DNA from: Actinophytocola gossypii
GTDB taxonomy: Bacteria; Actinomycetota; Actinomycetes; Mycobacteriales; Pseudonocardiaceae
Direction: 5' to 3'
DNA: 64,000 nucleotides
NCBI RefSeq assembly: GCF_025165815.1
Contig: NZ_JAFFZE010000016.1
Location: forward strand, 214,047-278,046
Positions 40,096 through 47,442 of this stretch are shown here, one piece after another; position 1 is the stretch's first letter; the number at the start of each line of letters is the position of its first letter. The translations under genes and the position numbers were made by a program. Below the pieces are notes generated by a model. That model was given only the letters and a program-made list of their open reading frames with translations. It was not told where the DNA came from and did not search any database.

Positions 40096-40177
40096 GTGCT
40101 CGGGTCATGCTACCGAGGCGCCGGAGCCGTGTCCGGTATGGGCGTACTCGTGTCACCCGTCGGGGCGGATGGCCTGC

Positions 40178-42670
40178 TCAGCTTGTCATGCGGACCGCGC
40201 CGATGACGGGTTCGTGCTCGTCGACGGCGGTGAAGGCGCAGACGAGGTAGTCGCCGACCCGGACCGTCGCGTCGGCGCCGGGGAGCTTCTTGACCACCTC
40301 GGGGTCCAGGCCGGAGGTCTGGACGGCCTCGTTCGGGCCGGCGACCGTGTACAGGGTGGCCGGGCCGGGCGTGACCACCAGGAGGGTCACGGCGTGGTCG
40401 GCGACGGCCAGCAACCGCACCTCGGTCGCGTCGGGTACGGCGTACTCCCAGGGCTGGCCCTCGGACGTCCGGACCACGCCGTCGGTCTCCCCCTCCTCGC
40501 CCCGGACGACGAACACGCCGTCGCCGTCGGTCAGGAGGTTCGTCGGGGGGTGTCCGGCGGTGCGGTCCTCGACCGAACCGACCCCGGCGCCGGAGATGTC
40601 GACGGGTCTGGCGAAGTGTCCACTTCCCACCAGGTGGAGACGTCGCAGGCCCGCGGCGTCGAAGCAGCCGGCCAGTAGGTGGTGCTTGCCGGCGGGCCGC
40701 AGGAAGCCGCCGCCCATGAAGTTGGAGAACTCACCGCATCCCTCCAGCTCCGTGCCCGGCGCCCAGCCGGGGTCGTCCTTGCTCCACTCGAGCAACCTCG
40801 TCGAATCGGCACACCTCGACACCGCCAGGACGCTGTCGTCCACCGCGTGGGCGAAGCCGGTCAGCCGGCAGGACGGTTCCACCGGCTCGGCACCGACGTC
40901 CGTCGACCCCAGGCGCTCTCCCGTCCTGGTGTCGAACCAGGTCAGGTCCGTGCTGTGCTCGGTCTGGGACGCACCGCCGCCGTAGGACGCGGTCACCAGG
41001 CCGTCGCTGATCGACAGCGACGTCCCGCCGGTCTTGCCCACCGCGCCGGAGAAGCCCTCGTCGACCAGGGAGACCGGCTCGTCCCACTCGGGTTCGCCCG
41101 ACTCCACCGAGATGACCTGCAGGGTGTGGCACCGTTGCCCGCCGTCCCCGCCCCGCGGTCCGTAGGTGACCGCGCCGAGGCCGCTCGCCGTGACGTTCGG
41201 GCTCAGGTTGCACAGGAAGGCGTCCCCGGGGACCTCCCACGACCACAGCTCCGCACCGGTCTCGACGTCGTACGCGGTCAGCCCCTTCCAGTGGCCGAAC
41301 ACCACACCGTCCGGCAGGGGCCACATGCCCTCGTAGAAGCCCGCCTCCTCCCTGGTCATCGCCCAGTGGAACCCGCCGACACCGTTGGGGCCCGGCTGCT
41401 CGGCGGCGATGCCGTCGTCCGACCCGGACGACGGACCGTCCCGCCAGGGCGCCAGGACGACGACCGCGACGACGGCGGCGACGATCAGCACCGACAGCGC
41501 GCCGACCACGGCGGCCCCACCCGTCCGGCGCCCGGACGGGCGGTGCGGCGGCGGGTACGGGGCGGCGGCGGCCGGGACGTCCCAGGTGCGCGCTCCGAGA
41601 CTGCCCAGGCCGATCTGGTGCGCGCCGAGCGCGACCGCGGTCTCGGGCTGGTCCAGGGCCGTCGGGACGACCCCCAGCTGCTCGGCCATGAGCGTCGCCA
41701 CCAGCGGGATCCGGCTCGATCCGCCGACCAGGTACACCCCGGCCAGCCAGCCGACGTCCATGCCGGCGCCTCGGGTCGTGGAGCCAAGCAGCTCGACGCT
41801 GCGCAGCAGGCCCGGCCGGACCGGCGTCTCCAGCTCCGCCCGCGTGACCAGCACCGAACCGAACGGCTCCGGCATCGCCACCTCGGTCTGCGGGTGCTCG
41901 GACAACGCCTCCTTGGCGACCCGGACGTCCTCCCGCAACGCCAGCGACGCCCGGCGGTCCTCGGCCGAGCCCGGGGTGACGAGGCGACGCCAGGCGTCCG
42001 GGTCCCGCCCGCCGACCTGGCGGCCGAGGTGGTCGAGCAGCGCCTGGTCGATGTCCAGGCCGCCCAGGTCGGACAACCCGGACTCGGCCAGCACGGTGAG
42101 GCCGTGCTGGCCGGCGCCGACGACCGCCGCGTCGAACGTGCCGGCGCCGAGGTCGTAGACCGCCAGCGCCTGTCCCGGCGCGAGTACCCGCCCGGTCGCC
42201 GACGCGAAGTGCGCCGCGGCCGCCACCGGCTCGGGCACCAGCTGGACGACCGCGCCGACGCCGGCCTGCCGGGCGGCCTCCAGCAGGACCGCGCAGCGCG
42301 CGGTGCCCCACCGCACGGGGTGGGTGAGCCGAACCTGGTCCGGCAGCACACCCCCGAGCTGCCGGCTCGCCTCCGCGACGACCTTGCCGAGCACCGCGCC
42401 GAGCGCGGACGCCACCGGCACCACGACGTCGCCGAGCAGCAGCGTGCCGTCGTCGACCCGGCGCTTGGGGTTGGGCTCGAACCGGGCGGGCGCGGACCGG
42501 GCCAGCCGGACCGCCTCACGACCGGCCACCAGCCGGCCGTCCTCGGTGGCGAACACCGCCGACGGCATCGCCGACGCTCCGTCCACATCGACCACTCTCG
42601 GCGGCCGGCCGGGCGCGGACAGCACCGCCACCGTGTTGGACGTTCCCAGGTCAACGGTCAGTACGCGCAC
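40178..42670 (-). CDS. Hsp70-family actin-like ATPase domain fused via a TM helix to a C-terminal PQQ-like beta-propeller (predicted extracytoplasmic)
   Basis: N-terminus VDLGTSNTVAV and later DLGAGTFD (Hsp70/actin phosphate-1 and -2 motifs). Hydrophobic segment AAVVGALSVLIVAAVVAVVVLA. C-terminal half rich in repeated W/G/D beta-strand motifs (PQQ/WD-like). Start placed at the GTG (VRVLTVDLG). Confidence 0.75.
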   Translation of the reverse strand: MRVLTVDLGTSNTVAVLSAPGRPPRVVDVDGASAMPSAVFATEDGRLVAGREAVRLARSAPARFEPNPKRRVDDGTLLLGDVVVPVASALGAVLGKVVAEASRQLGGVLPDQVRLTHPVRWGTARCAVLLEAARQAGVGAVVQLVPEPVAAAAHFASATGRVLAPGQALAVYDLGAGTFDAAVVGAGQHGLTVLAESGLSDLGGLDIDQALLDHLGRQVGGRDPDAWRRLVTPGSAEDRRASLALREDVRVAKEALSEHPQTEVAMPEPFGSVLVTRAELETPVRPGLLRSVELLGSTTRGAGMDVGWLAGVYLVGGSSRIPLVATLMAEQLGVVPTALDQPETAVALGAHQIGLGSLGARTWDVPAAAAPYPPPHRPSGRRTGGAAVVGALSVLIVAAVVAVVVLAPWRDGPSSGSDDGIAAEQPGPNGVGGFHWAMTREEAGFYEGMWPLPDGVVFGHWKGLTAYDVETGAELWSWEVPGDAFLCNLSPNVTASGLGAVTYGPRGGDGGQRCHTLQVISVESGEPEWDEPVSLVDEGFSGAVGKTGGTSLSISDGLVTASYGGGASQTEHSTDLTWFDTRTGERLGSTDVGAEPVEPSCRLTGFAHAVDDSVLAVSRCADSTRLLEWSKDDPGWAPGTELEGCGEFSNFMGGGFLRPAGKHHLLAGCFDAAGLRRLHLVGSGHFARPVDISGAGVGSVEDRTAGHPPTNLLTDGDGVFVVRGEEGETDGVVRTSEGQPWEYAVPDATEVRLLAVADHAVTLLVVTPGPATLYTVAGPNEAVQTSGLDPEVVKKLPGADATVRVGDYLVCAFTAVDEHEPVIGAVRMTS

Positions 42671-42785
42671 CAGTTCTCCACCCCTGCCACTCGGCCGTGC
42701 TGGTGCCAGAGGGTCGGGGTCGGTACGCGTCAGCGACAAGGCAAGTGCGGCGGCCACTTCTGGCCGGGTGGGCCTACCAGGGGGT

Positions 42786-44228
42786 CTACTCGAAGATGCC
42801 CTGCCCGGGAGCGAGCACGTGCCGCGGGTCGTAGGTCGCCTTGGCCAGGGCGAACCGCGGGTACCGGTCGCCGTAGTGGGCGCGCCAGTCGGCCGGGGTG
42901 AGCGGGATCGCGCCAACCGGGTAGTGGGTGCCGCCGACCGCGCGGACCTGGTCGTACAGGTCGCGGTTCACGCCGAGCAGGCGCTGCACGTCCGCCTCGT
43001 TCGGCGGGTCCACGGCGCGCAGGATCGCCAGCAGGAAGATCACCTCGCTGTCCGGCACCGTCACGAACGGCAGGGTCAGCAGCTCCCTCGGCACCGGGTA
43101 CAGCAGGACCACGCCGCCCGCGTCGGCCGGGGTCAGGTCGGCCAGGACGTCGGCGACGTAGGCGTCGGTCGCGGCGTCGGGGACGAACACGTTGATCCAC
43201 GGGCCGGGCAGGCGCAGCGGCTTGAGGTCCTCGACCAGGGCGTAGATCCGGTTCAGCCAGTCGAAGTACGGCATGTCCACGATCTCGGTGGACGCCGGGT
43301 CGAGGCCGGCCAGGAGCGCCGCGTCGTCCGGCACCTCCGGCGGGGTGTGGTACTCGACGCCTTCCAGCATGTACCGCCAGCCGCCCTCGGCGGGGATCAG
43401 CTGGCCCTCCAGGTAGCTGAACCGGCGGTCCGCCAACGCCGTGCGCTGGGCGGCGGTCATCGACGCCAGGTCCGGGTAGTACAGGTTGTAGACCCGCGCC
43501 GTCGACTCCGCCGGCACCAGGCGAACGGCGGCGCGGACGATGATCGCGAACTGGCCGAGCCCGCCGAGCACCGATCGGAACAGTGCCGGGCGCACGGTCG
43601 GCGAGCAGCGCAGGTGCCGGCCGGAACCCGTCACGACCTCCAGCTCCAGCACGTTGTCGACCTGCATGCCGTGGTGCGAGCTGGCCCCGCCGATCCCGCC
43701 GACCGACAGCGTGCCGCCGACCGACAGGCCGAGGTAGTCGGTGTTCACCGGCGGCGTCAGGCCCTCGGCCACCGTGGCGCGCACCAGGTCCAACCACTGC
43801 ACGCCGGCGTCGACGACCGCGCGGTCCTGGTCGATCCGGTGGATCGTGGCCAGCGTGCGAGAGTCGATCACCACCCCGCCGCCGGCCTGGGCCTGGCCGA
43901 ACGTCGAGTGGCCCTGGCCGCGCATCGCGACCTTCAGGCCGTGCTCGCCCGCGTACTGGACCATCCGCACCACGTCGCGCACCGACCCGGGCCGCAGCAC
44001 CGCGACCGGGCGGCGGTGCACGAGGTGGCCGTAGTCGTCGGCCGCCTCGGCCAGGGACTCCTCGTCGACGACCAGCTCGCCGTCCAGGTGCGGCACGCCC
44101 ACCGCGCCCGGCTGGGTCGCCGACGCGTCGGCCTCGGTGACCCAGCCCAGCCCGGCGGGGTCGAACGCGACCACGGCCGCGGCGGCCGAGCCGGCCAGGA
44201 AGGTTCGCCGGCCGAGACGGGAGTCCAT
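42786..44228 (-). CDS. Tat-exported FAD-linked oxidase (FAD_binding_4, cytokinin-dehydrogenase/BBE-like fold)
   Basis: Twin-arginine signal MDSRLGRRTFLAGSAAAAVVAF. FAD-binding PCMH domain (VAVLRPGSVRDVVRMVQYAGEHGLKVAMRGQGHS). Start ATG preceded by AAGGAG. Confidence 0.8.
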   Translation of the reverse strand: MDSRLGRRTFLAGSAAAAVVAFDPAGLGWVTEADASATQPGAVGVPHLDGELVVDEESLAEAADDYGHLVHRRPVAVLRPGSVRDVVRMVQYAGEHGLKVAMRGQGHSTFGQAQAGGGVVIDSRTLATIHRIDQDRAVVDAGVQWLDLVRATVAEGLTPPVNTDYLGLSVGGTLSVGGIGGASSHHGMQVDNVLELEVVTGSGRHLRCSPTVRPALFRSVLGGLGQFAIIVRAAVRLVPAESTARVYNLYYPDLASMTAAQRTALADRRFSYLEGQLIPAEGGWRYMLEGVEYHTPPEVPDDAALLAGLDPASTEIVDMPYFDWLNRIYALVEDLKPLRLPGPWINVFVPDAATDAYVADVLADLTPADAGGVVLLYPVPRELLTLPFVTVPDSEVIFLLAILRAVDPPNEADVQRLLGVNRDLYDQVRAVGGTHYPVGAIPLTPADWRAHYGDRYPRFALAKATYDPRHVLAPGQGIFE

Positions 44229-44332
44229 TGGGCACGCTCCTTGCTGTTCGGAGTGGACGCCCGGCGGACGATAGTCCACGATCGACTCGCCCGGTTCCCC
44301 CTTTTGCCGAGCCCGATAAGGCAAACGGCCGC

Positions 44333-45670
44333 TCAGAACGCCGGTGCCAGCGCCGGCTTCGCGACGCTCGGCACCCGCCGGGTCGGCAGCTGGTGACGTC
44401 CGGTCGCACGGTTGCGGTTCGGGGCCCGGCTCGCCATCGCCGCCGCGGGGATCGGCGTCGGCTCGGCCGGCGCGCGCCGCTCGCCGGGCGCCGGGTTGTG
44501 CCGCATCACGGTCTCGGTCCAGGTCAGCACCGCGCCGGGGCTGTCCAGGCCGATCACACCCATCAGGCGGCCGTCGGCGACGTAGCCGACGACGGTGCCG
44601 TTGCCCTCCCTCGGGGTGCCGAGCGAGATCGTCTCCGTGCCCAGCTTCGGCACGCCGGCGGCCTGGATCCGCACGCCGAACTGCTCGGTCCAGAACCGGG
44701 GCATCGGCGTGAACGGCCGGGCGGCGGACCGACCGGCGAGCAGGCTCTCCGCCGCCGCGCGGCCCATCTCGACCGCGTTCAGCCAGTGCTCGATCCGGCG
44801 GGGCTTGTCGTCGAAGCGCAGGTTGGGCCACTGCGCCACGTCACCGGCGGCGACCACGTCCTCCGCGCCGACCACGTGACAGGTCGCCTCGCAGACCACG
44901 CCGTCGTCCAGCGGCAGGCCGGACCCGCGCAGCCAGGTCGTCGCCGGCACGGTGCCCGCGGCCACGATCGCGCACGCGGCCAGCATGAACGTGCCGTCGG
45001 ACAGGTGCAGCTCGATCCCGTCCGGTCGGGGCACCCAGTGCCGCACGGACGTCTCCAGGGCGAGGTCGACGTCGTGGTGGCGGTGCATCGAGGTCATCCA
45101 CTCGCCGAGCTGCGGGCCGAGCACGTTGCCGAGCAGGTTGGGGCCGCGGGCGACGATCGTCACCTCGCGGTTGAGGTGCCGCAGGCTGCACGCGATCTCG
45201 CAGCCGGTGAACCCGCCGCCGACGATCGCCACCGGGCCGCGGCCGGCCGACACCGCCCGCTCGATGCCGAGCGCGTCCTGCATGGTGCGCAGGCCGAGCA
45301 CCCGCGGGTCGTGGTACGGAACGCCGGGGATCCGCCTGGCCTCCATGCCGGTGGCGATGACCAAACCGTCGTAGGTGAGGTCCTCACCGCCGGGCAGGCG
45401 CAGGGTGCGCTTCTGCGGCACGAGGTACTGGACGCTGGTGTCGAGCCGCCACTTCGCGCCGATCTCCCGGTACGCGGGCAGCATCAGGTCGACCGGCTTC
45501 ATCGCGCCGGTGAGCAGCTGCTTGGACAGCGCGGGCCGGTGGTAGGGCGGGGTGGCCTCGTCGCCGATGATCACCAGCTCGCCGTTGAACCCGAGCTCCC
45601 GGAGCCGCTCCGCCGCGCGCAGGCCGGCCAACCCGGCACCCACGACGACCACACGTTCGAGCCGGCTCAT
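44333..45670 (-). CDS. FAD-dependent pyridine-nucleotide-disulfide-oxidoreductase-type ferredoxin reductase
   Basis: Two Rossmann motifs (VVVVGAGLAGLRAAE and VAIVGGGFTGCEIA), with ferredoxin/putidaredoxin-reductase-like length and order. ATGA overlap with the upstream membrane-ferredoxin gene. Confidence 0.85.
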   Translation of the reverse strand: MSRLERVVVVGAGLAGLRAAERLRELGFNGELVIIGDEATPPYHRPALSKQLLTGAMKPVDLMLPAYREIGAKWRLDTSVQYLVPQKRTLRLPGGEDLTYDGLVIATGMEARRIPGVPYHDPRVLGLRTMQDALGIERAVSAGRGPVAIVGGGFTGCEIACSLRHLNREVTIVARGPNLLGNVLGPQLGEWMTSMHRHHDVDLALETSVRHWVPRPDGIELHLSDGTFMLAACAIVAAGTVPATTWLRGSGLPLDDGVVCEATCHVVGAEDVVAAGDVAQWPNLRFDDKPRRIEHWLNAVEMGRAAAESLLAGRSAARPFTPMPRFWTEQFGVRIQAAGVPKLGTETISLGTPREGNGTVVGYVADGRLMGVIGLDSPGAVLTWTETVMRHNPAPGERRAPAEPTPIPAAAMASRAPNRNRATGRHQLPTRRVPSVAKPALAPAF

Positions 45671-46494
45671 TTGCTTCCTACCTCCTGCAACTGGATGGCC
45701 CGCATGGGACAGGCGCGTGCCGCGGCCTGCGCGCCCGCCCGGTTCTCGTCGTCCGGATCGCGGACGTAGCGCAACCGTCCGTCCTCCAGCAGGGTGAACA
45801 GCTCCGGTGACTCCATCTGACAGATGCCGTACCGCTTGCACCGCTGGTTGTCCACGGCCACCCGAACGGTGCGCGCGACCCCGTTCTGCACGCCAGACGG
45901 CTCCTGGATCGGGGAGGCGGCGACCGGTGCCGCGCCGAGCAGGCCCGCGCTGATCAGCAGCCGGGGCGGCAGGAAGCGCAGCACGGTCAGGGTGACCGCC
46001 GGGACCAGCACGGTGAACCCGCCGAGCCACATCGCCGACAGGTGCCCGTTGGCGATCGCGCCGAACCAGGAGTGCACCACGAGCATCGCCACCGCCGGGT
46101 AGGCGAGCTGGTGGAACCGCAGCCAGCGCCGGTAGTTCACGAACCGCTTGAGCCCGACCCCGATGGCGATCGCGATCATCAGCTCCAGACCGAGGATGCC
46201 GAGCGTGTGCCGGAACAGCCCGCTGAACGGGATCGTGATGCCGGTGAGCGACAACCCCTGTTCCCGCAGCAGCAGGAACACGATCGCGTGCGTCATCCCG
46301 GCGGCGATCGTGAACGACGCCAGGATCATGTGCCCGGACCGGATGGCCTGGTACCCGGTGAGCCTGCGGATCCAGCCGGTCGCGGTCAGCACACCCCAGC
46401 ACAGCGTGAAGCACATCAGCACGTAGGCGGCACGGGCGGAGAGCGCGGCGACCTCCCGGACGCCGATGTCGTGGCCGGGCAGGGCGATGATCAT
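45667..46494 (-). CDS. fusion protein: 5-TM membrane domain with paired intramembrane histidines (candidate b-haem, ferric-reductase/MsrQ-like) + C-terminal [3Fe-4S]/[4Fe-4S] ferredoxin
   Basis: His pairs in TM2 (GHMILASFTIAAGMTH; 14 residues apart) and TM4 (VVHSWFGAIANGH). C-terminal ferredoxin VAVDNQRCKRYGICQMESPELF...ARACPMRAI (CxxGxC...CP). ATGA overlaps on both sides. Confidence 0.65.
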   Translation of the reverse strand: MIIALPGHDIGVREVAALSARAAYVLMCFTLCWGVLTATGWIRRLTGYQAIRSGHMILASFTIAAGMTHAIVFLLLREQGLSLTGITIPFSGLFRHTLGILGLELMIAIAIGVGLKRFVNYRRWLRFHQLAYPAVAMLVVHSWFGAIANGHLSAMWLGGFTVLVPAVTLTVLRFLPPRLLISAGLLGAAPVAASPIQEPSGVQNGVARTVRVAVDNQRCKRYGICQMESPELFTLLEDGRLRYVRDPDDENRAGAQAAARACPMRAIQLQEVGSK

Positions 46495-47204
46495 GCCGTC
46501 CCGCCTTTGCTGAAGCCGCGGACGAGCCCGAGGGTCGCGCCGACCACGAAGACGCCGAGGATCCCGGCGAGCGCGAGGTCGCTGCCGCCGAGCGTGTTCT
46601 CCGGGTTGTCGGCGGAGCGGGCGGAGGCCTCGCTGAACAGCCCTTCGGCGGTGACGTGTCCGGTGCCCTCGAGGATCGTCATGTGCTTCATGACCACGGT
46701 GTTGGCCGACGTGGCGAACTCCCGGATGGTGTCGTTGCGGGTGCCGGCGCGGACCTCGGCGATCAGCCCGAACACGGTGCCGTGCGCGGCCCGGAGCCGG
46801 TTGGCGAAGACCCGGTCGAACTCGTCGCCGGTGGCGGCGCTGATCTCGTCCATCCACTGCTGGTGGTTGGCCTTCGGGGCGTCCGGCAGGTCGACGCCGA
46901 ACTGCTGGGCCAGCTCCTCGATCTGGACGTTGAGCTGCTTGTGGTCGGCGTTGATGGTGCGGCCGACCTCGCGCACGTTCTCGGAGTTCCCGCGTTGGGC
47001 GGCCAGGTCGCCCATCGGGATCTCCCAGAGGTTGGCGAACCGGATGGTGAACAGGAACTCCCGGTCCCGGTCGCTGAACTCGTCGCCGTCGGGCTGCTGA
47101 GCCTGCCGCGGCTGCTCGGCGAACGCGAGCCAGGCGGCCGGGAACGCCGACACCAGGAGAGCGAGGAGACCGGCCGCCACCGAGCGGATGACCGCGCGCC
47201 GCAT
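46491..47204 (-). CDS. secreted DUF4142 (ferritin-like four-helix) domain protein
   Basis: Signal peptide MRRAVIRSVAAGLLALLVSAFPAAWLAFA. Repeated DUF4142-like helices (FDRVFANRLRAAHGTVF...). Start at the internal ATG of the track ORF. Confidence 0.65.
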   Translation of the reverse strand: MRRAVIRSVAAGLLALLVSAFPAAWLAFAEQPRQAQQPDGDEFSDRDREFLFTIRFANLWEIPMGDLAAQRGNSENVREVGRTINADHKQLNVQIEELAQQFGVDLPDAPKANHQQWMDEISAATGDEFDRVFANRLRAAHGTVFGLIAEVRAGTRNDTIREFATSANTVVMKHMTILEGTGHVTAEGLFSEASARSADNPENTLGGSDLALAGILGVFVVGATLGLVRGFSKGGTA

Positions 47205-47212
47205 CGTGTGTC

Positions 47213-47338
47213 TCACTTCTGTACGTGGGTGACCGGAGCGCCGTACTCGCTGCTGTCGCCTTCGCGGAAGTTGCAGGCCCCCAGCAAGGCCACGGCCATC
47301 GCCGTGACCACCACCAGCCCTACCACCCGAGACGACAT
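47213..47338 (-). CDS. possible 41-aa lipoprotein (MSSRVVGLVVVTAMAVALLGAC-NFREGDSSEYGAPVTHVQK)
   Basis: Small ORF not in the track, with signal peptide and lipobox LLGAC. Stop is 9 nt upstream of the DUF4142 start. Only weak support. Confidence 0.3.
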   Translation of the reverse strand: MSSRVVGLVVVTAMAVALLGACNFREGDSSEYGAPVTHVQK

Positions 47339-47442
47339 CAGCGACTCCTTCCGGCCCGATCGACGCCCCTATATACGGTGGCCGGCACCCCGTCGTTCAA
47401 CCCGGCGGCCACATTCCGCGCACCGGTTCCCGACCTGCGACG

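Follow-up and report, generated by a model that had tools for sequence, protein, structure and literature searches.

A conserved four-gene actinomycete unit encoding a ferric-reductase-domain:ferredoxin fusion and an anchored DUF4142 protein, a candidate trans-membrane electron conduit

Gene Content and Limits of the Conserved Unit

The conserved unit found in the analysed DNA of Actinophytocola gossypii (64 kb, hereafter the window) is, as judged from its gene order and homologues, a set of four genes encoding a small lipoprotein, a DUF4142 protein, a fusion of a ferric-reductase domain with a ferredoxin (FRD:Fdx), and a ferredoxin reductase (FdR). The explanation that we hold with moderate confidence, taken as a whole, is that these genes form one operon driven by a predicted ECF (SigL-family)-type promoter, and that the unit may deliver electrons to an extracytoplasmic metalloprotein as a NOX/MsrQ-like conduit of three components. 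No published description of the four-gene unit was found in the literature.

Gene neighbourhoods were counted over 82 loci, residue invariance over 85 distinct genomic homologues, and promoters over 83 loci. Of the 82 loci, 71 have DUF4142 immediately upstream of FRD:Fdx, and 75 have FdR immediately downstream of FRD:Fdx on the same strand. The ORF and domain calls in the window gave six consecutive minus-strand ORFs between 40178 and 47338, one fewer than the seven genes counted in a preliminary description of this DNA; the ORFs listed there and most of their domain calls are real. The ATGA overlaps reported there were likewise found at 46491-46494 and 45667-45670, the second of which indicates that FdR is translationally coupled to FRD:Fdx.

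The preliminary description extended the operon to a seven-gene system in which two further gene products, a Tat-exported FAD oxidase and an Hsp70/propeller protein, served as periplasmic redox partners. The first gene (42786..44228, minus strand) does encode a cytokinin-dehydrogenase-like FAD-linked oxidase (FAD_binding_4 and Cytokin-bind) with a GRRTFLAG twin-arginine motif. The second (40178..~42670, minus strand) encodes an Hsp70-like ATPase with a TM helix and a weakly BamB/PQQ_2-like C-terminal domain; the Hsp70 match covers the nucleotide-binding part alone (profile positions 115-369 of 599), and the PQQ_2/BamB-like match is sub-threshold (E = 0.0047, 17 bits against a cut-off of 27.6 bits). 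Both genes share the strand of the unit and stand close to it in this genome, with 104 nt between FdR and the oxidase and about 115 nt between the oxidase and the Hsp70-like gene, and no terminator-like fold was detected in the 104-nt gap (z = 0.27). However, only four genomes, the closest ones of Actinophytocola (that of the window, L003, L005, and L006), have the oxidase after FdR, and it is absent in 78 of the 82 loci; the Hsp70-like gene of the window has no counterpart beside the module in any of the 82. The Hsp70-like gene occupies a strain-specific 2.6-kb segment (window 40177-42791) without a counterpart in the three closest relatives, L005, L006, and L003, where tRNA-Lys comes immediately after the stop codon of the oxidase; the FRD:Fdx of L005 is 97% identical to that of the window. 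The comparative data (the neighbourhoods of the 82 loci and the 2.6-kb segment) thus largely refute the seven-gene system, which is highly improbable, and since neither gene is conserved with the module, both fail as components by the standard of joint conservation that the preliminary description itself had set.

The FRD:Ferredoxin Fusion and Its Reductase

FRD:Fdx (45667..46494, minus strand) was predicted to be a five-TM ferric-reductase-domain protein with a C-terminal cytoplasmic 3-Cys ferredoxin domain (Fer4_15, E = 8e-9; Ferric_reduct). The Ferric_reduct score of 22.3 bits is below the Pfam cut-off of 28 bits and covers profile positions 3-120 of 121; precomputed PF01794 matches are present in many of the homologues. 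Two trans-membrane His pairs at b-haem-like spacing had been noted earlier, with a lack of their conservation in homologues named among the findings that would count against the proposal. The pairs are real (H55/H69 and H128/H141), and all four residues are invariant in the 85 homologues and also in alignments A1 and A3, H55/H128 being the predicted inner and H69/H141 the predicted outer haem ligands. Their spacing of 14 and 13 residues equals that of human NOX2, where the haem ligands are H101/H115 and H209/H222, and is close to that of SpNOX (H69/H82 and H129/H142; PMC11031084). By the positive-inside rule, with K/R-rich loops at 34-56, 116-129, and 173-178, the N-terminus is predicted outside, the C-terminus and ferredoxin inside, and H69/H141 close to the outer face.

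The cluster cysteines of the ferredoxin domain (C219, C225, and C262-P263) are of the [3Fe-4S] type, and the CxxYxxC...CP motif is invariant in the 85 sequences. In the AF2 model of the fusion (pLDDT 78), this domain superposes on M. tuberculosis Fdx 8AMP (TM 0.88) and also on the P. furiosus [3Fe-4S] ferredoxin. The structural neighbours of the TM domain, STEAP2 as the top match together with SpNOX and the NOX5 TM domain, are weak (Foldseek E 0.05-0.4; TM-score 0.4-0.55).

FdR (44333..45670, minus strand) is a predicted NAD(P)H:ferredoxin reductase with FAD and a glutathione-reductase-type fold (Pyr_redox_2, E = 3.7e-53, and Reductase_C), which carries a 55-aa low-complexity C-terminal tail. 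It was placed as HcaD/AndAa-like by NCBIfam, and among solved structures TodA 3EF6 (E = 2e-46), BphA4, and putidaredoxin reductase come nearest to it; the cytoplasmic enzyme proposed earlier is of the TodA/BphA4 type. The reductase belongs to the same family as those of class I P450 and Rieske dioxygenase chains (FdxE-CYP143 of M. tuberculosis, TodA, and BphA4), and the ferredoxin to the same single-cluster family (8AMP, 8AMQ, and 6MCW), which in 6MCW is also fused to its acceptor. These types would suit a soluble chain in which FdR and the ferredoxin serve a P450- or AlkB-type monooxygenase, with the membrane domain as a mere anchor and DUF4142 only co-regulated, and an AlkB-rubredoxin gene does lie downstream in locus L004. 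Nevertheless, the module has no conserved P450 or oxygenase neighbour, all conserved partners carry export signals, and the four invariant membrane-embedded His at haem spacing make the acceptor a predicted di-haem trans-membrane domain, not a soluble oxygenase. The absence of a trans-membrane conduit is accordingly considered quite unlikely.

The DUF4142 Protein and Lipoproteins

The DUF4142 protein (46491..47204, minus strand; PF13628, E = 5.8e-25) comprises a signal peptide, a four-helix ferritin-fold domain, a linker, and a C-terminal TM anchor. The family and its ferritin-like character were named in the preliminary description, which regarded the protein as secreted; the C-terminal helix is a predicted membrane anchor, and both export signal and anchor are present in every genus examined. 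In four loci with only 26-29% identity and a different, divergent arrangement, DUF4142 is likewise a neighbour of FRD:Fdx-FdR, which points to functional coupling rather than inherited synteny. It is missing from some FRD:Fdx-FdR loci (L086/L087, the P0271 contig, and seven Umezawaea solo-paralogue loci) and so cannot be the universal acceptor.

The closest folds to the DUF4142 model in the structure comparison were DUF305 proteins and Cu(I)-bound CopM, described as a periplasmic copper-binding protein (PMC4335983); no solved structure of any sequence-level DUF4142 relative was found. Sequence similarity to DUF305 is sub-threshold (23.7 bits against a 27-bit cut-off), and the present protein differs from CopM, whose links are to a two-component system and an RND pump, in being membrane-anchored and operon-linked to a reductase. 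A DUF4142 gene is also contained in the methylolanthanin metallophore locus (PMC11317620). The conserved putative ligands, about one per helix, are E61, H88, H141, and H174; they are not strictly invariant across genera. The joint loss of E61, H88, and H141 in two divergent copies (L059 and L068) suggests that these three residues form one site. A metal-related role of the module may be proposed by analogy of fold and, more distantly, of regulation.

Alternatively, DUF4142 might be an extracytoplasmic redox enzyme in an MsrPQ-like repair or detoxification system, for example a rubrerythrin-like ferritin-fold peroxidase or oxidoreductase, so that FRD electrons would reduce peroxides or oxidised envelope components instead of supporting metal-ion handling. 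However, a canonical di-iron site requires two ExxH motifs and further carboxylates, whereas the conserved DUF4142 set looks mononuclear; the protein has no sequence similarity to rubrerythrins, and the conserved neighbours point to no substrate. This alternative is regarded as possible, though rather unlikely.

The first operon gene (47213..47338, minus strand) encodes a 41-aa lipoprotein with a signal peptide, an LLGAC lipobox, and a GGAAGGAG ribosome-binding site; its mature form begins C-N-F-R-E-G-D-S-S-E-Y-G. It had been mentioned earlier as a possible small lipoprotein and is both real and conserved: in 23 of 26 Actinophytocola-type loci, an ORF in the corresponding position has a lipobox followed by C[QEND][LF]REGxx[ST]EYG. 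It had no Pfam match. Lipoprotein_15 and DUF1996 proteins are recurrent extra partners of the module in other loci.

Promoter and Sigma Factor

An ECF (SigL-family)-type promoter-like motif, TGAACG-N16-CGTAT (47373..47399, minus strand), ends 34 nt before the start codon of the lipoprotein gene and is the single match in the window, with a chance expectation of 0.10. In 71 of 83 loci, from at least eight genera, the form TGAAC[CG]-N15-17-CGTA[CT] precedes the first operon gene at the equivalent place. In relatives, a divergent sigma/anti-sigma pair adjoins the module, with M. tuberculosis SigL (6DV9_F, E = 6e-38) as the closest match of the sigma factor and RslA as that of the anti-sigma factor; the pair is absent from this 64-kb window. 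The CGT-containing -10 element and the GAAC-type -35 element resemble those of the M. tuberculosis SigL-RslA regulon. The -10 element CGTAT has A at -11, whereas the sigma-L consensus determined by experiment in M. tuberculosis has G at this, its most specific, position (PMC6372665), and the list of that regulon holds no FRD/DUF4142 operon (PMC4105308).

Proposed Electron Transfer and Comparison with Known Systems

The split NOX/MsrQ-type system leading from NAD(P)H to an extracytoplasmic partner, as put forward earlier, is consistent with the conservation, topology, and folds of the core genes once it is stripped of the FAD oxidase and the Hsp70-like gene. From these features we infer haem and cluster binding, an outward direction of electron flow, and DUF4142 as the probable acceptor. 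Cytoplasmic FdR, a FAD enzyme, would oxidise NAD(P)H and reduce the membrane-tethered [3Fe-4S]-type ferredoxin domain, which would hand single electrons to the inner b-haem (H55/H128) and then to the outer b-haem (H69/H141), the two haems presumably forming a trans-membrane stack like that of NOX, FRE, and MsrQ. From the outer haem, which would be exposed, electrons may then pass to an extracytoplasmic client, most likely the metal centre of the anchored CopM/DUF305-like DUF4142 or, alternatively, ionic Fe(III) or Cu(II) captured or handed on by it. The micro-lipoprotein here, and the Lipoprotein_15 or DUF1996 proteins elsewhere, may be accessory factors. In physiological terms, the unit could serve metal homeostasis of the envelope or the response to oxidative stress, with a SigL/RslA-type pathway turning it on.

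E. coli MsrQ (YedZ) is an FRD haem protein fed by a separate cytoplasmic NAD(P)H flavoenzyme and docks its extracytoplasmic partner at the exposed distal haem (PMC11031084). The MsrQ/Fre/MsrP system and the present unit share an FRD membrane protein, a separate cytoplasmic flavoenzyme donor, and a dedicated extracytoplasmic partner. They differ in the donor (a glutathione-reductase-fold FdR plus a fused Fe-S ferredoxin, against the FNR-type flavin reductase Fre), in the partner (ferritin-fold DUF4142, against the molybdoenzyme MsrP), and in the membrane domain, which in FRD:Fdx has five TM helices and the full four-His pattern. No Oxidored_molyb gene was detected in any neighbourhood examined.

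With NOX2, NOX5, SpNOX, and the FRE/FRO reductases, FRD:Fdx shares the FRD fold, two His pairs on two helices at 14/13-residue spacing, the proposed inside-to-outside electron flow, and a cytoplasmic donor joined to the C-terminus of the last TM helix. In contrast to these, it has one TM helix fewer and an approximately 65-aa [3Fe-4S]-type ferredoxin instead of the FAD_binding_8/NAD_binding_6 dehydrogenase domain, its flavin comes from the separate FdR, and a dedicated protein partner is encoded beside it. The matching His spacing and the short extracellular loops of FRD:Fdx would also fit a three-component NADPH-oxidase analogue, in which the outer haem makes superoxide from O2 for signalling or antagonism, and DUF4142 and the lipoproteins either give protection or are accessories without relation to it. 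In line with such a function, bacterial FRDs whose haems are exposed, SpNOX among them, can reduce both O2 and cytochrome c in vitro (PMC11031084); however, an exposed low-potential haem always leaks electrons to O2, and in-vitro oxidase activity therefore cannot discriminate between the readings. A superoxide generator would leave the tight, ancient linkage to the anchored DUF4142 without explanation, and its induction by an envelope-stress sigma factor would be counter-intuitive. This function is considered unlikely.

STEAP metalloreductases likewise belong to the FRD proteins, their substrates being Fe(III)/Cu(II) on the outer side of the membrane, and STEAP2 is the structure nearest to the TM domain of FRD:Fdx. 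They differ from the fusion in having an N-terminal F420H2:NADP+-oxidoreductase-like domain, one haem plus FAD, and the outer His pair only.

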